This document shows positions 3,513 to 26,487 of a stretch of DNA of 32,000 nucleotides, in pieces; position 1 is the first letter of the stretch; the number at the start of each line of letters is the position of its first letter. The notes beneath the pieces are model-generated. The model was given only the letters and a program-made list of their open reading frames with translations. It made no database searches and was not told the DNA's origin. Source of the DNA: Candidatus Saccharimonadota bacterium (GTDB lineage Bacteria; Patescibacteriota; Microgenomatia; UBA1406; GWC2-37-13); the NCBI GenBank assembly GCA_016432445.1, contig CP066689.1:90001-122000 (forward strand), given 5' to 3'. Position numbers and translations under genes: made by a program.

Positions 3513-5246
3513 ATGAGATTTAGCTTCATTTTATTCACTCTTTCTATTTTAGTTTTAACAATTCTTTTCAAGGTAAACGCTGATGAATATGATGATATTA
3601 CCAAACAACTTAATGATTTAAAACATTCTCTTGAGTCATCTCAGAAGGCAACTGCAACTAACGAAAAGGAATTGGTTAAACTTAATACTCAATTTAATGA
3701 TATTAAAAATAAAGTAGCTTATTTAGAAGGTGAGATTGTCAAAAAAGAAAGGGAAGTAAAAGAAGGGGAGAAAGCTTTAGTGTATCAAAAAAAACTTCTT
3801 GATCAGCGGGCTATTTCTTACTACAAAAACTTAAACAAAAGTTCAATGGGAGTAATGGAGATATTAGTATCAGAAGATCTTACTCAAGCTTTGCAGAACT
3901 TTTTTTACCAAAAAACCCTGCAGGACGAGGATAGACGGACTATAACTAAAATTGTTCTTTATATTAAAAACCTGGAGGGGAAAAAAACCAGTCTTGAAAT
4001 AGAAACCAATCGTCTAACTATTATCAAACAGGAAGTTGATAAACAGTCAAAATTTTTATCAGGAGAAGTATCAAAATCAAAAACCTATGAGAGTAAGTTA
4101 CAGCAACAAATTGCTCAGCTAAGCGCCAGACAAAAAGAGATTTTAGCTCAAAAATTATCCAGTTTAGGTATCCCACAAAGCGCTTATACCACCAAAGGAG
4201 GGTGTGTTGATGACCGTGAGGTTGATCCTGGGTTTAGTCCACGAATAGCCTTTTTTACATTCGGTGTTCCCAACAGAGTGGGGTTAAATCAATATGGGGC
4301 TAAAGGAAGAGCTGAGGCTGGACAGAATGCAGAACAAATTTTAAAATCTTATTACAATGCCGAATACACTGCCGGATACAGCACTGGAGGAAACATTCAT
4401 GTGGTTGGGACAAACGAATATGGGCAATCTTTTGATGATAACTGGAATATTGAGGAATATTTAAAACATTTATATGAAATGCCTACGAACTGGGCAAGCG
4501 AGGCGTTAAAAGCTCAGGCAATCGCGGCGCGGTCATATGCTTTAGCATATACTAATAACGGCCAAAATTCGATCTGTCCTAGTCAACAATGTCAGGTAGT
4601 TAAAAGGGAAGAGAATAGTGATTCATGGAAGAATGCCGTAAATGATACAGCTGGGATTGTAATGACAAATGGAGGACAGCCAATAAAAGCCTGGTTTTCC
4701 TCAACTCATGGAGGGTATGTTTTTAGCTCGGGAGACATTGGTTGGAGTGGAACGGCTTGGACGAAAAACGCAAGAGATACTACAGGAGATGTTAGTAATT
4801 TTTCTGATCTTTTGTCCAACGCTTTTGATAAAGCTTCTCCTTGGTTTTACTGTGATTGGGGATCAAGAGCAGAATATAACAAAACCGCCTGGCTTAAGTC
4901 TGATGAAGTAGCAGATATTGTTAATGTTTTGCTCTTGGCCAAAATGGATTCATCCACCCAAAATCATCTGTCTCAAATTGATAAGCCAAACCCTGATGGG
5001 ACAGATACTTGGGATAAAGATAGAGTTAAATCAGAGTTAAGATCTAGAGGAAAAACACCGTTTAATTCGATAAGCGATATAAGCATTGATTGGGATCGAG
5101 GGACAGGGAAGACAACCTCAGTTAATCTCTCAGGAGACGGGGGTTCGGTAAATTTCAGTGGAAGCGAGTTTAAAAATTTTTTCAATTTAAGAGCGCCGGC
5201 TTCTATTCAAATTGTTGGCCCTTTGTTTAATGTTGAAAAAAAATGA
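3513..5246 (+). CDS. SpoIID/LytB-domain peptidoglycan-remodelling protein with N-terminal coiled coil
   Basis: SpoIID signature EEYLKHLYEMPTNWASEALKAQAIAARSYALAY...C..QQCQVV. N-terminal signal or TM, then a ~200-aa heptad-rich region. I prefer ATG 3513 (MRFSFILFTL...) to the tracked GTG 3495, because TATAAT (3501-3506) lies 6 nt upstream of 3513. Confidence 0.8.
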   Translation: MRFSFILFTLSILVLTILFKVNADEYDDITKQLNDLKHSLESSQKATATNEKELVKLNTQFNDIKNKVAYLEGEIVKKEREVKEGEKALVYQKKLLDQRAISYYKNLNKSSMGVMEILVSEDLTQALQNFFYQKTLQDEDRRTITKIVLYIKNLEGKKTSLEIETNRLTIIKQEVDKQSKFLSGEVSKSKTYESKLQQQIAQLSARQKEILAQKLSSLGIPQSAYTTKGGCVDDREVDPGFSPRIAFFTFGVPNRVGLNQYGAKGRAEAGQNAEQILKSYYNAEYTAGYSTGGNIHVVGTNEYGQSFDDNWNIEEYLKHLYEMPTNWASEALKAQAIAARSYALAYTNNGQNSICPSQQCQVVKREENSDSWKNAVNDTAGIVMTNGGQPIKAWFSSTHGGYVFSSGDIGWSGTAWTKNARDTTGDVSNFSDLLSNAFDKASPWFYCDWGSRAEYNKTAWLKSDEVADIVNVLLLAKMDSSTQNHLSQIDKPNPDGTDTWDKDRVKSELRSRGKTPFNSISDISIDWDRGTGKTTSVNLSGDGGSVNFSGSEFKNFFNLRAPASIQIVGPLFNVEKK

Positions 5247-6208
5247 TTTTTGGTTTTGTTAAAACTCCATTGAACAATAAGAGTTGAAACTAATACCACA
5301 ATAAAAAAGCTTATCCAATCAAACTTAAGGGTTTTAATAAGAACGGTAAGGGCATAAATTACTAAGTAATGAATGAAATAAATGGTATAAGAATTTTTGC
5401 TTAAAAATATAAAAAGATTTCTTACTGGGAAAAAATTTAAGAAATGGGTTTTAAAGATAAGATAGAATAAAGGAATAGAAAAAACTCCGTAGGACAAATG
5501 ATACAAATTAGGAGGGTATTTATTGTTATACATAACTAAGGAGTGATTAGTCATTATCTGAAATTGACGGGTTAACAAAAATACCAGCAATGCAATAATA
5601 ATGGTTGCCGGCAAGAACCATTTAGTATTTTTATATCTGACAAAATAAATACCAAAAACAATAATTAAAGACCAAGGCAACCACATGGTTAATTGATAGG
5701 GGAAAGGTAAAGAACCTGACATAAAAAAAAGAGAACTACTTAAACTAAGAAAAAGAAAAACATAAAAAACTATCTTTAATTTTTCTTCGAGGTAATATAA
5801 AAGAGGCATAATTAGAGTAAAGAATAAAAAAAGCACGATAAGCCAGTTAATAGCCATACCATCTAAAAAAATAAAATTCCCTAATAAAAATTTTTGAGTT
5901 ATTCTTTGCGGTTCTCCCAGAAATACCAGAAAAATAAAAATAACTGAGAATAAATAATAAGGGATAAGAAGACGGTTTAATCTTTTTTTAAGATAATTCC
6001 ATAGATTTTTGAAATCAAAAGCAAAAGGACGCTGAAAAAAAATATAAGTTGAACAGAAAATAAAAACAGGTACAGCAAACTGGCTATAGTCCCATAGAAG
6101 ATAAGCAATTTTATTGGAAAGATGATAGGCGTTGGTATGAATAAGAATCATAACCAGCATAGAGAGACCCCTTAAAAAATCAATCTCCAAATATCGCGGT
6201 TTAGTCAT
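5207..6208 (-). CDS. Integral-membrane acyltransferase family 3 protein
   Basis: 333 aa with about 10 predicted TM segments. The N-terminal motif YLEIDFLRGLSMLVMILIHT is typical of acyltransferase_3 (OatA/OafA-like). Its 3' end overlaps the convergent SpoIID gene by 40 nt. Confidence 0.7.
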   Translation of the reverse strand: MTKPRYLEIDFLRGLSMLVMILIHTNAYHLSNKIAYLLWDYSQFAVPVFIFCSTYIFFQRPFAFDFKNLWNYLKKRLNRLLIPYYLFSVIFIFLVFLGEPQRITQKFLLGNFIFLDGMAINWLIVLFLFFTLIMPLLYYLEEKLKIVFYVFLFLSLSSSLFFMSGSLPFPYQLTMWLPWSLIIVFGIYFVRYKNTKWFLPATIIIALLVFLLTRQFQIMTNHSLVMYNNKYPPNLYHLSYGVFSIPLFYLIFKTHFLNFFPVRNLFIFLSKNSYTIYFIHYLVIYALTVLIKTLKFDWISFFIVVLVSTLIVQWSFNKTKNHFFSTLNKGPTI

Positions 6209-6339
6209 AAAGAAGTATTATACAGAGTTTGCAATTGACCGCAAACTTCTTTATACTTTTTATCTATGGCAGTATTTTTTTTGAGCTTTTTTTTTGTGGT
6301 CGCTGTCCGTTACTTTCTTAATAAAACCGAGTCATCCCG

Positions 6340-8418
6340 TCAGTAAAAAGGAATAAGCGGTAATAATGTTTTAATCGGACTAAGTTTTACAGTAGGTGAT
6401 ATTATAATGGTGGGAGTGGGTGTTTTTATGATACTGCAGGAAGTTTGAGGTTGAGTGCCTTCAATAAAATACTCAACAACAGCTATTGTTTGCTTTGATC
6501 CTGGTAAAATGCAAGCAGTTTGAGTGACGATTCCTAATGGAGGAGTAAACTGTTCAGGGGTGGTAGTTTGGAGAAACCGTTCCATTAGTGAGCGCCAGAT
6601 TGGAGCTGCACCCAAAGAGCCAGCTACCTGATCCATTGATACTCCATCATTATTTCCAACCCAAACACCAATTGCTAAACTTGGCGTATATCCCAATGTC
6701 CACGCGTCCCGGTAATCTTCAGTTGTGCCGGTTTTGACTGCGGCCTGACGGGATAGATTTAAAGTATTAAAAAAAACTTCAGCGCGGGTATTATTGTCGG
6801 ATAATATTGATGAAATTAAAAAAGCTGCTTCCGGTTTTAATACTGGATCCATCTCGGGTTCATGATTGTAAACGACGTTTCCCATTTTATCTTCAATCTG
6901 AATAATAGTTGTGGGGCTGTTTTTATAGCCAGAATTTGCAAACGTGGCGTAAGCTCCGGTTAATTCAACCAGTTTTACTTCAGCGGCTCCCAATCCTAAA
7001 GAAAGGCCATAATTTGAAGAGTCGTGAATAGTGGTTATTCCCAGACGCTTGGCCATTTCTACAGCCTTATCTATCCCGAGACGGTTTAAAACTTCAATTG
7101 ACGGTACATTCAGAGAGTTGGCTAAAGCCCGTCTGGCTGTCACATTACCTCTGAATTTGCGGTCATAATTTACAGGACGATAATTTAAACCGTAGCTTAC
7201 TGGTTGATCATTAAGGATCGTGGCCGGAGTAATAATTCCCTCTTCAAGAGCTGCAGAATAGTAGATCGGTTTAAAAGAAGAACCCGGTTGACGTAGTCTT
7301 TCGGTTACGTTCACTTTCCCAAACTTTTCATCAAACCAATCCTTACTGCCAACTAATGCTCTTATCTCTCCGTTTTTTGGATCTATAACAACAGCGGCGC
7401 CATTATGAGCATTGTTAACAGCCAGTTTAGAGACTTGATCTTTCACAACTTGTTCAGCATACAATTGCCACTCGCTCTCAAGAGTTGTTTTTACTTTAAA
7501 TCCTGAACGGATAATTTTTTCTTCACCAAATCTTCTTATTAATTCGTCTTTAACCATTAAAGCAAAATGAGGAGCAAAAGAGTTTATGGCATCACGGTTT
7601 TCAGAAAATTGAAGTATTTCTTCTTCGGCTTGTTTCAGTTGTTCTTGATTAATGTTTTTATCTTCATACATACTTTCAAGAACTATTTTTTGTCTTTTTT
7701 TTATTTCCTCAAAAGAATTATTAAAAGGAGATAATTTTGATGGGGCGGGCAATAAGCTCGCTAAAACTGCCGATTCGGCTATATTTAAATCTTTAGCTTC
7801 TTTTTCAAAATAAACATGAGCCGCCTCCTCAATGCCAAAAGCGCCACTACCAAAATAAACCGAGTTTAAGTACATCTCAAGAACTTCAGCTTTGTTATAA
7901 CGGCGTTCAATTTCATAGGCTAAGACTACTTCCTGATATTTCCTGACAAAACTTTTCTGAGGGGTAAGCAGGGAGTTTTTTACAAGCTGTTGAGTTAGGG
8001 TTGATCCTCCACTTGATAAACTGTTGCTTTTAATATTGGCAATAATTGAACGGATAATACCTCTTATTGAAAAACCAGGGTGGTTGTAAAAATCTTTATC
8101 TTCAACCGCAATAACAGCTTGTTGAGTATGAAGAGGTATTTTATAAAGAGGAATAAATACTTTATATTTACCTTGATAAAAAGTGAAAAAAGGCTGATTA
8201 TTGCGGTCAAAAAGAATAAATCCGGTATCTTTATAGTTCATTACGCTTTCCTTGCTTTCCAAATCTTTGGCAAAATAAAGATAAGTGCTAACGGCAACTA
8301 GAGCCAGAACCATAACCGCGGCAACAAAAATGACAAAAAGCGGTCTGACGATGCCGATAAAAATATGGTGAAAGTTAAGCTTCATTTTAAATAGCTTATA
8401 GGAATAATATTTAGACAC
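6340..8418 (-). CDS. Class A penicillin-binding protein (bifunctional glycosyltransferase/transpeptidase, PBP1A-like)
   Basis: GT51 motifs AVEDKDFYNHPG, GGSTLTQQLVKN, RKYQE. Transpeptidase motifs SSFKP (SxxK), SLN (SxN), KTGTT (KTG). The tracked start is GTG 8418. ATG 8385 (MKLNFHH...) is an alternative, since it has TATAAG 9 nt upstream. Confidence 0.9.
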   Translation of the reverse strand: MSKYYSYKLFKMKLNFHHIFIGIVRPLFVIFVAAVMVLALVAVSTYLYFAKDLESKESVMNYKDTGFILFDRNNQPFFTFYQGKYKVFIPLYKIPLHTQQAVIAVEDKDFYNHPGFSIRGIIRSIIANIKSNSLSSGGSTLTQQLVKNSLLTPQKSFVRKYQEVVLAYEIERRYNKAEVLEMYLNSVYFGSGAFGIEEAAHVYFEKEAKDLNIAESAVLASLLPAPSKLSPFNNSFEEIKKRQKIVLESMYEDKNINQEQLKQAEEEILQFSENRDAINSFAPHFALMVKDELIRRFGEEKIIRSGFKVKTTLESEWQLYAEQVVKDQVSKLAVNNAHNGAAVVIDPKNGEIRALVGSKDWFDEKFGKVNVTERLRQPGSSFKPIYYSAALEEGIITPATILNDQPVSYGLNYRPVNYDRKFRGNVTARRALANSLNVPSIEVLNRLGIDKAVEMAKRLGITTIHDSSNYGLSLGLGAAEVKLVELTGAYATFANSGYKNSPTTIIQIEDKMGNVVYNHEPEMDPVLKPEAAFLISSILSDNNTRAEVFFNTLNLSRQAAVKTGTTEDYRDAWTLGYTPSLAIGVWVGNNDGVSMDQVAGSLGAAPIWRSLMERFLQTTTPEQFTPPLGIVTQTACILPGSKQTIAVVEYFIEGTQPQTSCSIIKTPTPTIIISPTVKLSPIKTLLPLIPFY

Positions 8419-22824: not shown

Positions 22825-23274
22825 ATGAAAGTTATTAACCGTGTGTACAATCGGGAATATGAAGAACTGGAGAAATATGAAGCCGGTATTGCCCTTACTG
22901 GAGGCGAAGTTAAAGAGGTTAAAAAAGGAGGGATAAAGCTTGAAGGTTCATATGTTAAATTGATGGAATCGGGCCCTCATTTGGTGAATGCCGAAATTCC
23001 AGCCTACAAGTATGCTAAAAACGAAAATTATGATCCCAAAAGAAGCCGGAAACTACTTTTGCATAAAGACGAACTAGAGCATATTAGAAGTAAAATTGCC
23101 TCCACGCCAAGTTTGACTGTGATACCTATAGCATGTTATAATAAAGGTAATCTTATTAAGCTAGAAATAGCCTTATCAAGAGGCAGAAAAGATATTGAAA
23201 AAAGGAAAAGAGAGAAAGCGAAAGAAATAAAAAGATCTCAACAAAGAGAAGCAAAAGAGTATATGAAAAATTAA
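22825..23274 (+). CDS. smpB: SsrA-binding protein SmpB
   Basis: 149 aa. YEAGIALTGGEVKEVKKGGIKLEGSYV, RKLLLHKDEL, basic C-terminal tail. Immediately upstream of the tmRNA gene. Confidence 0.93.
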   Translation: MKVINRVYNREYEELEKYEAGIALTGGEVKEVKKGGIKLEGSYVKLMESGPHLVNAEIPAYKYAKNENYDPKRSRKLLLHKDELEHIRSKIASTPSLTVIPIACYNKGNLIKLEIALSRGRKDIEKRKREKAKEIKRSQQREAKEYMKN

Positions 23275-23353: not shown

Positions 23354-23750
23354 GGGGATGATGGGTATCGACGAGGAAATTGCACTTTTAAAAAATGGTT
23401 AGGGCGTACCTATGCGTTAAATGGAAAATTTAACTGCAGATGACGAATCTACAGCTGCCCAAGCTTGGTCATATCGCATGGCACAACCTGCCTATGCATA
23501 TGCATACAATGCCTAAAGCCTCTTTTTTAAGTTTTCCTTGGTTCAACTTAAGATAAGAGATAAACCAATCAAGGTGAGGCGATCAGGAGTTCTCGATTGG
23601 CCTGAAAGTCGAAAAACCCTTCAATCGGTGGCTTGAGACCAAAGGTTTGCTTGTTTTCCTTCTCAAGCGTCAAAAAAAATAATCTATCCCTAACAAAACA
23701 TTTTTAAAATGCTTCTTTGGACGCGGGTTCAACTCCCGCCATCTCCACCC
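23354..23750 (+). ncRNA. ssrA: tmRNA (SsrA), one-piece
   Basis: The 5' end GGGGATGATGGGTATCGACGAGG and the 3' end GGACGCGGGTTCAACTCCCGCCATCTCCACC are nearly identical to the canonical E. coli ends (GGGGCUGAUUCUGGAUUCGACGGG ... GGACGCGGGUUCAACUCCCGCCAGCUCCACCA). A tag ORF lies at 23436-23516. The terminal CCA is not fully encoded (ACCC). Confidence 0.9.
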
Positions 23751-23779
23751 TTCGCCTTCGTGCTTTGCACTCAGGCTTC

Positions 23780-23800
23780 GGAGTGGCACGGCCACACTCC
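23780..23800 (+). terminator. Intrinsic terminator-like hairpin downstream of ssrA
   Basis: GGAGTGGC-acg-GCCAC(a)CTCC forms a 9-bp GC-rich stem with one bulge, followed by GTTTAATT. Confidence 0.5.
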
Positions 23801-23946
23801 GTTTAATTACAGTAGACTTTAAAATCTTTACCAAGAAGGGTGTCCCCAACGTAGCTTGAGCGGAAGCGAAGTGGGACTAAATATTCTTAAACATTGTAGC
23901 TGATAATCTACAGACATTTTCTAAATGAGCAACTATGATTTTCATC

Positions 23947-24183
23947 ATGTACTACGTTTATATTTTAAGACTCAAAGATAATACTTATTATCATGGTTTT
24001 TCAAATAATCTAAAAAACAGAATAAAATATCATCAGGAAGGGAATGTTCCTCAAACAAGAAAATTAAGACCAATTAAATTAATTTATTATTCCGCTTTTG
24101 AATCAAAGAAAAAAGCCTTGGATTTTGAGAAATATTTGAAAACTTTTTCCGGCTTTGCTTTTAGGAATAAAAGGTTAATTTAG
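23947..24183 (+). CDS. Stand-alone GIY-YIG nuclease-domain protein (~78 aa)
   Basis: MYYVYILRLKDNTYYHGFSNNLKNRIKYHQEGNVPQTRKLRPIKLIYYSAFESKKKALDFEKYLK carries the GIY-YIG core (YVYIL...YYHGFSNNL..R...H, and E in FEKYLK). I prefer ATG 23947 because TATGAT lies 7 nt upstream. The stop TAG overlaps the first base of repeat copy 1. Confidence 0.8.
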   Translation: MYYVYILRLKDNTYYHGFSNNLKNRIKYHQEGNVPQTRKLRPIKLIYYSAFESKKKALDFEKYLKTFSGFAFRNKRLI

Positions 24184-24208
24184 TTGAAATTATTTTCGAT
24201 CTTGTTCA
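24183..24208 (+). repeat. 26-nt direct repeat, copy 1
   Basis: GTTGAAATTATTTTCGATCTTGTTCA matches copy 2 at 25/26. On the minus strand it reads, in frame after the protease TAA stop, F-P-E-Q-D-R-K-TAA. Confidence 0.9.
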
Positions 24209-24213
24209 GGAAA

Positions 24214-24675
24214 TTAATTAGCTATCTTGAGTTTATCAATGCTTATGTAGTCGGGGAAATTAAAAGTTACGCAAAAATTACGAAAGAAGCCGACAGTTCC
24301 TAATATAGCTGTTTGCTGAGGCATAGAAGAGGGGAATTTATTATAAGAAAATGCTATAAAATCTTCTACGCTTAGCACATTTCTTTTATCAGCATCACCT
24401 ATTGTAAGTCCTACCTTATGAAGATAAACAATAATTTTTCCTCCGCCAACTCCTGTAACTTCAACTTTGCTACCTGATTTTATGTCAAACCCTAATGCTT
24501 CGCCTATTTCATGATCTACAAATGTAAGTTCTGATCCAGAATCAACTAAACCTAAAGCATACAACATGTTTGATTTATTATTAGGGTTAAATAAACCAAA
24601 TCTGATCCAAGGCAGGACATTTTCTCTTTTCTTATGATTTGGAAAATCTACGACCTTAACGTAAGGAAATATCAT
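24214..24675 (-). CDS. Retropepsin-like (clan AA) aspartic protease
   Basis: 153 aa. Catalytic D-S/T-G motif in ALGLVDSGSELTFV, a beta-rich body, and a C-terminal AILGTVGFFRNFCVTFNF resembling the retropepsin LG.DFL dimerisation strand. The start ATG overlaps the stop of the upstream small ORF (TAATG). Confidence 0.65.
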   Translation of the reverse strand: MIFPYVKVVDFPNHKKRENVLPWIRFGLFNPNNKSNMLYALGLVDSGSELTFVDHEIGEALGFDIKSGSKVEVTGVGGGKIIVYLHKVGLTIGDADKRNVLSVEDFIAFSYNKFPSSMPQQTAILGTVGFFRNFCVTFNFPDYISIDKLKIAN

Positions 24676-24860
24676 TATCCAATAAATATGTTCTCAAAGG
24701 GTGCCGTTTTAAGCATGCTAGGATTTTTCACACCTTTTTTTTTAGCACTAGAAAGAGCTTCTCTTAAAGTTTTTCCTTTAGCGATTACCCTACTATTATC
24801 AGTTGTTAGAGCAAGCCAACCTGATTTATTTCTCTTTAGTACTTTGCTTAAGTCGGTCAT
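24675..24860 (-). CDS. Small protein (61 aa), possibly DUF5678-like, translationally coupled to the aspartic protease
   Basis: MTDLSKVLKRNKSGWLALTTDNSRVIAKGKTLREALSSAKKKGVKNPSMLKTAP... The W-(L/V)-A...(V/I)-(I/V)-A-x-G-x-(T/S)-L-x-E-A...KKG...P pattern matches my recollection of DUF5678. That assignment is unverified. Its TAA stop shares one base with the protease ATG. Confidence 0.4.
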   Translation of the reverse strand: MTDLSKVLKRNKSGWLALTTDNSRVIAKGKTLREALSSAKKKGVKNPSMLKTAPFENIFIG

Positions 24861-24905
24861 TTGAGTTATTTTTTAGAACTTATAATTAAGATACCTTTTT
24901 CGTAA

Positions 24906-24916
24906 TTGATAATCAA
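24906..24916. promoter_or_regulatory. Palindrome TTGAT-A-ATCAA upstream of the small-protein/protease operon
   Basis: TTGATAATCAA lies 46 nt upstream of ATG 24860 on the minus strand. Its arms match those of the palindrome at 25612-25626. Confidence 0.35.
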
Positions 24917-25054
24917 CATTAATATGTAATGAGTATGTAAGAGTATTTTATCACAATGTACATTTGTTTAAATACTCTCATGTGATAAGTAGTTGGTCGT
25001 TCTATAAGGAGAATTAAGATTATTGTACCAGCGGAAGATGTACTCGCAGATTTG

Positions 25055-25080
25055 GTTCAAATTATTTTCGATCTTGTTCA
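25055..25080 (+). repeat. 26-nt direct repeat, copy 2
   Basis: GTTCAAATTATTTTCGATCTTGTTCA. On the minus strand it encodes the C-terminus and stop of the DUF4406-like gene (…PGEQDRK-TAA). Confidence 0.9.
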
Positions 25081-25607
25081 CCAGGATTTAGTTCTAGGTA
25101 GTGGATATTAATCCCAATTTCTTGCGCAGTTTTGAATTCATCAACAGCACCTTCGGATTGATCCCAGCCTGGAATCATATAAATATCCGTTACTCCACTT
25201 CTTAATACTTCTTGGAATAAGGGTTTCATCATCGCCGACATTTCTTCTCTTGATAGAGTTCCTTCTTTTACTCTTTTTAGTTCTTCCAAATCATCCCAGA
25301 TGATATCAAATATATCCGTTGATGCAAAAACAGGAAATCCCTGCTCTTCTCGTAACTGAGCCGCATATTTTCTCATTCGTTCGCTATTCTCCATTGTTGA
25401 TTTACGTCTTAATTCCGGGTCAGGTTCAGAATTTTTAGCTACAGGGCCTGAAACGAAACCTATTTTTTGGATTCCTCTTTCTTTCATTTCATCAATTGAT
25501 TTCTTTAGCGCATTTTGTATGTCACTGAAATTTCTTACGGCGCCTATAATTTTATGAAAGTCTATTTGCGGACCTTGTGATTTTCCTATATTTCGTTCTT
25601 CTCCCAT
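25062..25607 (-). CDS. DUF4406-like / nucleoside 2-deoxyribosyltransferase-fold protein
   Basis: 181 aa. KIGFVSGPVAKNS (compare IYIAGPmtG), an N at the equivalent position in TMENSERM, and the C-terminal IYMIPGWDQSEGAVDEFKTAQEIGINIHY (compare the family hallmark IYMLPGWE.S.GA..E...A...G). Assignment from remembered motifs. Confidence 0.55.
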   Translation of the reverse strand: MGEERNIGKSQGPQIDFHKIIGAVRNFSDIQNALKKSIDEMKERGIQKIGFVSGPVAKNSEPDPELRRKSTMENSERMRKYAAQLREEQGFPVFASTDIFDIIWDDLEELKRVKEGTLSREEMSAMMKPLFQEVLRSGVTDIYMIPGWDQSEGAVDEFKTAQEIGINIHYLELNPGEQDRK

Positions 25608-25611
25608 ATAA

Positions 25612-25626
25612 TTGATATTATATCAA
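25612..25626. promoter_or_regulatory. Perfect palindrome TTGATAT-T-ATATCAA overlapping the -10 of the DUF4406-like gene
   Basis: TTGATATTATATCAA lies 5 nt upstream of ATG 25607 on the minus strand. The minus-strand TATAAT (25622-25617) is inside the palindrome, 9 nt from the ATG. Confidence 0.4.
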
Positions 25627-25628
25627 CA

Positions 25629-25654
25629 GTTCAAATTATTTTTGATCTTGTCCA
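25629..25654 (+). repeat. 26-nt direct repeat, copy 3
   Basis: GTTCAAATTATTTTTGATCTTGTCCA matches copy 2 at 24/26. On the minus strand it closes a 15-codon mini-ORF (25683..25636, MITKKEINFCGQDQK-TAA). Confidence 0.85.
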
Positions 25655-25793
25655 CAAAAATTAATTTCTTTCTTTGTAATCATGTTATAATATGGCCTAT
25701 AGAAACAAGCCAAACTAATTGCCTGTTTGGTGTTTGTTTATATATTTTTTTTACTTGCACATTGAAAGTACGGGAGAATGTTTTTTGCTTGCC

Positions 25794-25834
25794 AGTGGCT
25801 TTTTGTCCCGATTTCATCGGGTTAGAAAGCCACT
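25794..25834 (+). promoter_or_regulatory. Two-tier stem-loop in the 5' region of the CDP-alcohol phosphatidyltransferase gene
   Basis: AGTGGCTTT (25794-25802) pairs with AAAGCCACT (25826-25834). An inner stem pairs CCCGAT (25807-25812) with ATCGGG (25816-25821). No U tract on either strand. It ends 35 nt before ATG 25870, and AAGGAG lies 9 nt before that ATG. Confidence 0.4.
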
Positions 25835-25869
25835 ACGGTGAGCAATAATAAAAAAAGGAGCGATCGATC

Positions 25870-26487
25870 ATGAGTATTATGGCATGGCTTGAACCTAACG
25901 TCAAAGAACCTTTGGCTAGGATTCCGGAAAGATTGGGAATTTCATCCAATTCGCTAACTATCTTTGGTCTCTTCTCAATAGGTATTTCAATGGCAATCCT
26001 ATATGTCACTAAGGATCTGGCGTGGACGTTTACGTTATTTATGCTGGGTTCGATCACGGATTTTATCGATGGGCCTTTGTCTCGGATTACCCGGAAAGCC
26101 TGTCCCTTTGGCGCCTGGCTTGACACGCAGTGTGATCGGTACGTGGAGATGATCATCGGGTTCGCCTTCACCTTCTATTTCTTTCCGGATCAGTATCAAA
26201 TGATGGTGACTTTTGCGGCATTTAGTTTTGCCTTCTTAGTCACCTATACGAAGTCTTCGGCCGAGGAGAAAAAGATCAAGGTCGAATGGAAAGAAAAGTG
26301 GCTTTTTGGTTATCCTGGGCGATTCCTCATCATCTGTGCTGGTATGCTCCTTACACATTGGTATCCTGACTCTTTTAGGATTTCCATGTGGGGCTTGCTG
26401 GTCTTCAACGTTGGAGTCTTTATCTATCGGATACGTAAGGTCTGGGCGTTAAAGGCACAGTATTCAGTGCCCTACGAGAATCAGTGA
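25870..26487 (+). CDS. CDP-alcohol phosphatidyltransferase family protein
   Basis: 205 aa, polytopic. Full family signature DFIDGPLSRITRKACPFGAWLDTQCDR matches D-x2-D-G-x2-(A/S)-R-x8-G-x3-D-x3-D. Canonical SD. Visibly higher G+C than its neighbours. Confidence 0.85.
   Translation: MSIMAWLEPNVKEPLARIPERLGISSNSLTIFGLFSIGISMAILYVTKDLAWTFTLFMLGSITDFIDGPLSRITRKACPFGAWLDTQCDRYVEMIIGFAFTFYFFPDQYQMMVTFAAFSFAFLVTYTKSSAEEKKIKVEWKEKWLFGYPGRFLIICAGMLLTHWYPDSFRISMWGLLVFNVGVFIYRIRKVWALKAQYSVPYENQ

Follow-up and report, generated by a model that had tools for sequence, protein, structure and literature searches.

In Dehalococcoides, tandem islands lie downstream of ssrA, the gene of the transfer-messenger RNA (tmRNA); some of them are integrase-less 'CIME' islands, and their 20-bp direct repeat is a copy of the ssrA 3′ end (PMC3146451). 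Many of these islands, 16 of those identified, carry a serine recombinase (DsiB) module (PMC3146451). Accretion of the ICESt1 type depends on a known integrase, which recognises a fixed att core common to the element family (PMC5704250). The effector-immunity clusters of the Vibrio cholerae type VI secretion system (T6SS) and the orphan modules of Rhs and contact-dependent inhibition (CDI) systems are described as arrays that grew by successive homology-anchored insertion, a process attributed to homology-facilitated illegitimate recombination (PMC5361080). Here we analyse a 32-kb stretch of DNA (the window) from the 1.1-Mb genome of a Candidatus Roizmanbacteria bacterium, in which three short direct repeats next to ssrA delimit two small gene cassettes (array proteins QQG44391.1 and QQG44393.1). 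The host belongs to the candidate phyla radiation (CPR), whose members have tiny genomes with few recognisable mobile elements and whose gain of accessory genes is poorly documented. By analogy with two other loci, the array appears to represent integrase-free, repeat-scarred accretion of cassettes in a CPR genome.

The order along the window is smpB, the tmRNA gene, a GIY-YIG nuclease gene, copy 1 of the repeat, a retropepsin-like protease gene, a DUF5678 gene, copy 2 with the end of a DUF4406-like gene, copy 3, a CDP-alcohol phosphatidyltransferase gene and a helicase gene. The repeats are observed directly. The 26-mer GTTCAAATTATTTTCGATCTTGTTCA occurs three times in the window, all on one strand, starting at 24183, 25055 and 25629 (spacings of 872 and 574 nt), just as a first-pass annotation of this DNA had claimed. 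Measured against the middle copy, the number of mismatches is one for copy 1, none for copy 2 and two for copy 3 (24-25 of 26 positions identical). Shuffling the window 100 times gave no match to the 26-mer, and no further copy is found in the 32 kb with up to six substitutions allowed. The cassettes that the repeats separate measure 574 and 872 bp. The likeness extends past the core: copies 1 and 2 are alike over 31 nt (29/31), and copy 3 is alike with each of the other two over 39-41 nt. The repeat unit is about 41 nt long on the minus (sense) strand, and conservation is higher in the 26-mer core than in its flanks. Across the array the window is matched at 100% identity by three independent Logan assemblies, and the repeats are therefore not an assembly artefact.

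All three copies preserve an in-frame TAA on the minus strand, and the reading frames proposed in the first-pass annotation hold in each. Copy 1 (24178..24221, core 24183-24208) directly follows the stop codon of the protease gene and reads KLKIAN-stop-FPEQDRK-stop. Copy 2 (25050..25095, core 25055-25080) supplies the C-terminus, ..LNPGEQDRK, and the TAA stop of the DUF4406-like gene and is located 194 nt upstream of the DUF5678 start. Copy 3 (25628..25669, core 25629-25654) closes a stub of 15 codons, MITKKEINFCGQDQK and stop (25636-25683); its core ends 21 nt upstream of the start codon of the DUF4406-like gene. Inspection of the core revealed TGAAC twice as a direct pair, 21 nt apart (TGAAC-N16-TGAAC), and no inverted repeat. 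Neither strand of the copies has significant secondary structure (folding z-scores of -0.46 to +0.97), and a scan of the region found no terminator-like site. We rejected several known identities for the repeat: a generic repetitive extragenic palindromic (REP) or terminator element within the 32 kb, given the three copies at up to six substitutions and no hairpin or terminator-like site; a dif/Xer or attC-like architecture, since inspection showed no palindromic arms; and a known RNA family, as Rfam matched nothing besides the tmRNA in 23700-25900.

Cassette 1 contains two genes, both on the minus strand. The second of these (24214..24675) encodes a stand-alone retropepsin-like aspartic protease of 153 aa (Pfam Asp_protease_2) with a DSGS motif. 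It gave a PDB profile match to the protease of feline immunodeficiency virus (FIV) with an E value of 1.3e-4; its AlphaFold2 model has a pLDDT of 89.9 and in Foldseek matches the retropepsins of FIV, Rous sarcoma virus (RSV) and Rickettsia. The protease family counts 779 representatives of 50%-identity clusters at E <= 1e-3, of which seven reach E <= 1e-30. The first gene (24675..24860) encodes a DUF5678-like protein of 61 aa, and its stop overlaps the protease start (TAATG). A leader lies upstream (24861..25049, minus strand); it contains a promoter-like site (24972->24945) as well as a palindrome (24940-24978). The first-pass annotation gave each cassette its own promoter and palindrome; this stands for the region upstream of DUF5678 and is not confirmed for the DUF4406-like gene, upstream of which the scan found no promoter-like site. 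Aligning the upstream regions of six loci revealed no conserved leader in front of DUF5678.

That the protease operon is modular and mobile is seen directly in other genomes. A DUF5678 gene of about 60 aa always precedes the protease there, with stop and start overlapping or abutting, and the pair is kept in seven unrelated contexts and in many CPR genomes; it is found after gltX and beside secA, SocA/Fic, rpsB-tsf-frr and uvrB. The contig with the secA-adjacent module also carries a ParE toxin gene some 2.7 kb away. Since a coupled pair of small genes recurs in unrelated contexts, we regard the DUF5678-protease operon as a putative toxin-antitoxin-like mobile module. In gene arrangement alone, cassette 1 has the traits of such modules: a small, co-directional and translationally coupled pair, a patchy distribution and a variable context. 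A literature search for DUF5678 or for retropepsin-like antitoxin partners found nothing relevant, PADLOC gave only weak matches for the protease (PDC-M08B, E 4e-4), and NCBIfam returned nothing useful. Carriage of the cassettes on phages or plasmids was also considered and rejected: tblastn of the protease against phages and plasmids and of the DUF4406 protein against phages gave no matches, and a scan of viral contigs for cassette carriage found nothing.

Cassette 2 consists of the DUF4406-like gene (25062..25607, minus strand), whose 181-aa product has a C-terminal tail unlike that of its homologues. The gene is rare, and the two homologues found are distant (44-49% identity). One of them is convergent with a tmRNA gene and about 40 nt from the tmRNA 3′ end, with nothing in between. 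At locus L011 an exact 11-nt repeat, AGTTCAAGCAT, flanks a DUF4406 homologue (1006-1016 and 1696-1706), the second copy lying over the stop codon. Although the layout is that of the window, this repeat is not significant (p ~0.09) and was discarded as a real flanking repeat.

The analogy on which our reading of the window depends is drawn from two other copies of the protease module, loci L016 and L024. For each module locus, the 400 nt upstream of DUF5678 were aligned with a stretch running from -80 to +250 relative to the protease stop and scored against 200 shuffles. Significant direct repeats flank the module in three of six distinct loci, none of the 200 shuffles reaching the observed score; these locus-specific flanking duplications are plainly visible in the alignments. 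The flanking repeat is 31 nt long in the window (29/31) and 18 nt in L016 (17/18). In L024, a Shapirobacteria locus, a 79-nt match (~84%) continues in frame to the stop, for a total of ~97-100 nt. The repeats of the three loci are unrelated in sequence, from which it follows that their source is the target and not the module. The upstream copy of L016 corresponds to the C-terminal coding end of a co-oriented 517-aa gene (..ERRMILRRSS-stop), and the downstream copy is the C-terminal tail of the protease (..KKRMILKKTQ-stop), with frame and stop kept. The L024 upstream copy belongs to a co-oriented gene for a 72-aa membrane protein, of which it forms the 3′ end (..FIWNLVREEKK-stop); the downstream copy is outside any intact gene, again with frame and stop kept (..FIWNLVKDNK-stop). 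Copies 2 and 1 of the window are laid out as in L016 and L024.

Over the first 26 aligned codons the L024 copies differ by seven synonymous and two conservative changes, and 8 of the 11 differing bases are at third codon positions (binomial estimate p ~0.009). Because the differences are mostly synonymous and the downstream copy is not in an intact gene, the two copies look like coding sequences that diverged in separate lineages and were then joined by recombination between donor and recipient. As a control, the same flank test was run on 82 open reading frames (ORFs) of at least 100 aa from eight loci. Only three ORFs reached 15 or more, namely the DUF4406 gene of the window with 21, its protease with 20 and the protease of L016 with 15; all others scored 13 or less, against a background maximum of 12-13. 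The top score among these, a borderline 13, belongs to a different two-gene module at locus L020 (59 aa and 284 aa, no Pfam match), which is next to a ParE toxin-antitoxin pair and is located between imperfect 31-nt direct repeats (24/31; 1554-1586 and 2618-2650), the downstream one overlapping the stop codon.

The sequence of the window repeat appears to be private to one lineage. A search with the 22-nt core returned two matches among genomes taken one per GTDB species and three in JGI metagenome contigs; none of the five has the GTTS prefix, and all look like chance matches. On this ground we rejected an att site in wide use, and the same search lends no support to the general exchange site envisaged in the first-pass annotation. 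The 26-mer is likewise absent from the homologous cassettes of other genomes. The DUF4406 homologues end differently, and the 18 aligned protease homologues have variable C-termini without QDRK. We therefore also rejected a conserved C-terminal module of the cassette genes, and the earlier suggestion of a 3′ module conserved across a family of mobile genes is likewise not supported, as homologues of both genes have neither the QD(R/Q)K tail nor the 26-mer. With the repeat missing from homologues and databases, it is neither a family 3′ module nor a common att site. Its lack of relation to the tmRNA 3′ end, noted in the first-pass annotation, is borne out. The last 63 nt of the tmRNA have a best local match of 8 nt in 23753-26000, below the shuffle mean, and no copy of the 3′ end is present there; the repeat unit itself shares only an 8-nt match with the tmRNA. 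A 13-nt likeness to an internal tmRNA segment is at chance level, and a copy of a tmRNA or tRNA 3′ end was rejected.

The variability of the ssrA flank is seen directly by comparison with L028, a Roizmanbacteria relative whose SmpB is 72% identical. There the tmRNA is followed by an MvaI/BcnI restriction-modification system and an NYN gene, with no GIY-YIG gene after it, and the L028 sequence aligns with the window no further than the tmRNA 3′ end. This supports the earlier view of the ssrA 3′ flank as a variable hot spot. The repeats do bracket two self-contained accessory cassettes, as the first-pass annotation claimed, and these fall in a region that varies among related genomes from the ssrA 3′ end on. 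The location of the array fits an integration hot spot in a hypervariable ssrA flank, as far as the sequences compared can tell. We note that Logan contigs from one or more samples (L002 and L006 represent a single contig), with perhaps as many as five others like them, end at 23720 within the conserved tmRNA 3′ end. This position is likely an assembly-graph branch between co-occurring relatives that have the tmRNA end in common and differ downstream. In L028, after the tmRNA and the MvaI/BcnI endonuclease, 4508-6394 encodes a 628-aa fusion of a LexA DNA-binding domain, Peptidase_S24 and an N6/N4 DNA methyltransferase, which is unusual for a restriction-modification methylase.

On balance we favour the interpretation that the repeats are recombination joints, duplicated when two cassettes were inserted 3′ of ssrA by homology-anchored recombination. 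Two small accessory cassettes would have entered this hypervariable stretch in succession, the incoming DNA pairing with the recipient through a short common segment. A circular molecule could be joined through one Campbell-type (insertion-duplication) crossover, a linear fragment through homology-facilitated illegitimate recombination; in both cases the insert would end up with the common segment on either side, and two events at one segment would yield the order repeat-cassette-repeat-cassette-repeat. The duplicated segment, ~41 nt, would comprise about a dozen terminal codons, the TAA stop and some 10 nt beyond. The in-frame TAA of each copy is most simply explained on the view that the segment was, or still is, a gene's last codons and stop, as in L016 and L024. 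Copies 2 and 1 would bracket the protease module and copies 3 and 2 the DUF4406-like gene, which runs into copy 2 as the L016 protease runs into its own downstream copy. An element-encoded recombinase would be unnecessary, and the repeat may have no function of its own. The route of recombination, the sequence in which the two events took place and the lack of function of the 26-mer are inferences. The first-pass annotation had proposed a recombination site for accessory cassettes; recombination boundaries at the ssrA hot spot survive from that proposal, while its integron-like, homing and family-wide 3′-module forms are not supported.

Several observations weigh against this interpretation. 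At three of the six module loci no repeat flanks the module. Within the window the copies differ at 1-3 positions and are too short and too similar for a comparison of donor and recipient, which is possible in L024 alone; copy 3 departs from copy 2 by two changes, both non-synonymous. The presence of copy 3 also requires either an upstream gene that has been lost, leaving the 15-codon stub, or an extra event. The same arrangement is present in 14-17 contigs of the same study without polymorphism. All of these same-population contigs have the full array, with no empty-site or intermediate allele and no boundary polymorphism, and hence the insertion boundaries are drawn from the repeats alone. 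The identical gene order in these contigs, with the three compared base by base being identical to the window, gives no support to the ongoing exchange implied by the first-pass annotation. Moreover, recombination is inefficient on 26-41 bp of homology, and homology-facilitated illegitimate recombination deletes recipient DNA more often than it duplicates it.

The layout can also be read as decayed integrative elements (CIMEs) piled up by site-specific accretion. The three repeats would be attL, attI and attR, and the 26-41-nt core would have been recognised by an integrase of the tyrosine or serine type that has since been lost or has its gene elsewhere in the genome, with the core copy of each element restoring a gene 3′ end. 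Three direct repeats, two integrase-less elements and the position of the repeats over gene 3′ ends fit such a scheme (PMC5704250), and the Dehalococcoides islands downstream of ssrA, tandem and in part integrase-less, are similar (PMC3146451). A length of 26-41 nt is usual for an att core, the neighbourhood of ssrA is known as an integration hot spot, and copy 2 provides the last codons and stop of the DUF4406-like gene, with an in-frame TAA in every copy. However, the repeat does not reproduce the ssrA 3′ end, and we found no integrase domain in the gene tables and Pfam scans, which cover most of the window and include the ORFs from smpB to the helicase gene; the first-pass annotation was right on this point. 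The core is absent from GTDB representatives and JGI metagenomes, and hence no related active element was detected, and cassettes of 574 and 872 bp are far below the size of known decayed integrative elements. The same module is accompanied elsewhere by unrelated repeats of 18 to ~100 nt, which a single integrase specificity would not give. We consider this origin unlikely. A local duplication of the ~41-nt segment, by replication slippage or by template switching during repair and unrelated to the acquisition of cassettes, would account for copies that are near-identical and for a locus that is invariant in the sampled population. Yet each copy sits exactly at a cassette boundary, and boundary repeats recur at other copies of the module but not at 78 of the 79 control ORFs outside cassettes, L020 with its borderline 13 being the exception. 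The L024 copies show coding divergence between lineages, and local duplication seems to us improbable.

The observation that each copy follows the end of a minus-strand ORF, the stronger conservation of the core relative to its flanks and the TGAAC-N16-TGAAC arrangement, which could suit a dimeric DNA-binding protein, would be in keeping with a functional cis-element: a terminator, an RNA-processing signal or an operator for the DUF5678 protein or another factor. Such a role is very improbable given that structure and terminator-like sites were not found, that the motif is missing from homologous cassettes in other genomes, that the 32 kb contain only three copies, all within 1.5 kb, and that these bear no constant relation to downstream genes, two lying 21 nt and 194 nt away and the third facing a convergent gene. 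Least credible of all is that the 26-mer is a cleavage or homing site of the adjacent GIY-YIG nuclease, with double-strand-break repair driving the gain and loss of cassettes. Free-standing GIY-YIG homing endonucleases do adjoin their targets, and adjacency alone speaks for the link: the first base of copy 1 is also the last of the GIY-YIG ORF, confirming that the stop of this ORF shares one base with the repeat. But the 82-aa protein is a catalytic domain alone with no DNA-binding domain, other repeat-flanked protease modules have no GIY-YIG gene nearby, contrary to the homing-like link proposed in the first-pass annotation, and L028 has no such gene after its tmRNA. Homing through double-strand-break repair is not known to create direct repeats. 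A more far-reaching proposal, to which we assign a low probability, is that the DUF5678 and retropepsin-like operon is a new miniature mobile element that inserts at or near host stop codons by a dedicated mechanism duplicating 18-100 nt of target, the 26-41-nt unit being a reusable docking site for integrase-free exchange beside ssrA, possibly aided by the GIY-YIG protein.

The array is framed on the left by smpB (22825..23274, plus strand) and the tmRNA gene (23354..23749, plus strand), which marks the left boundary of the variable region. For the window tmRNA, ARAGORN predicts the tag peptide DKPIKVRRSGVLDWPESRKTLQSVA followed by a stop; the ORF at 23421-23516 ends in ..RMAQPAYAYAYNA and a stop, resembling the L028 tag ..YRQYQPAYAYAA and stop, and the ARAGORN call is probably wrong. 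The 185-nt spacer between the tmRNA and the GIY-YIG gene (23750-23934) is G+C-rich compared with its surroundings and contains several stem-loops (minimum free energy -50.6 kcal/mol, z-score -1.94); it has no Rfam match and no homology at the equivalent position of L028. The GIY-YIG-only gene (23935..24183, plus strand, 82 aa) is convergent with cassette 1. Its start is ambiguous, as the NCBI (78 aa, QQG44837.1) and Logan (82 aa) gene calls differ, and its TAG stop depends on the one base by which copy 1 (ATTTAG) departs from copy 2 (ATTTGG). On the right flank, the CDP-alcohol phosphatidyltransferase gene (25870..26487, plus strand) is divergent from the cassettes. Some 35 nt upstream of its start, an inverted repeat at 25794-25834 (19-nt arms, 84% complementary, 3-nt loop) may be a 5′ leader structure; Rfam gave just weak, spurious matches to miRNA families. 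At the start of the window, 364-1689 encodes dnaA (Bac_DnaA and a C-terminal helix-turn-helix domain), which places the ssrA island about 22 kb from the likely replication origin.

Together with the parallel Microgenomates loci, the array provides sequence-level evidence for one route of gene acquisition. Small cassettes, toxin-antitoxin-like or other, seem to be acquired through short-homology recombination with no element-encoded integrase involved, to leave a scar with duplicated gene ends and to accumulate beside ssrA. If confirmed, repeat-bounded joints would offer a simple way to mark genes recently acquired by genomes for which metagenomes are the sole source. The analysis also flags the stand-alone retropepsin-like protease with DUF5678 as an uncharacterised mobile unit.

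Each of the described systems has part of this layout. Like integron arrays, for which toxin-antitoxin cassettes are common cargo, the window has small one- or two-gene cassettes in one orientation with a repeat at each cassette 3′ end. Unlike integrons, it has no attC-type imperfect inverted repeat, no RYYYAAC/GTTRRRY core pair, and neither intI nor attI in the scanned window, and at least the DUF5678-protease cassette has its own promoter-like site; the integron-like system suggested in the first-pass annotation is not upheld, with no attC-type structure and no integrase in the ORFs and gene tables scanned. Accretion of the CIME/ICESt1 type shares with the window three direct repeats that split two elements, a repeat that takes in the target gene's end and internal elements without integrase, whereas the window core is private to one lineage and the same cargo is found elsewhere with unrelated repeats. 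The Dehalococcoides islands resemble the array in having a variable region directly downstream of a single-copy tmRNA gene, adjacent insertions with short direct repeats and some units without an integration gene; they differ in that the window repeat is unrelated to ssrA, the scanned ORFs contain no integrase and the units are below 1 kb as against several kb. The T6SS, Rhs and CDI arrays diversify one functional system and are anchored in a long conserved 5′ gene region, whereas the anchor of the window is ~41 nt long, its gene is not identifiable and the two cassettes are functionally unrelated. What the window, on our reading, has in common with them is successive insertion beside a constant anchor, older units pushed downstream, fragments of gene 3′ ends at the joints and the lack of a dedicated recombinase.

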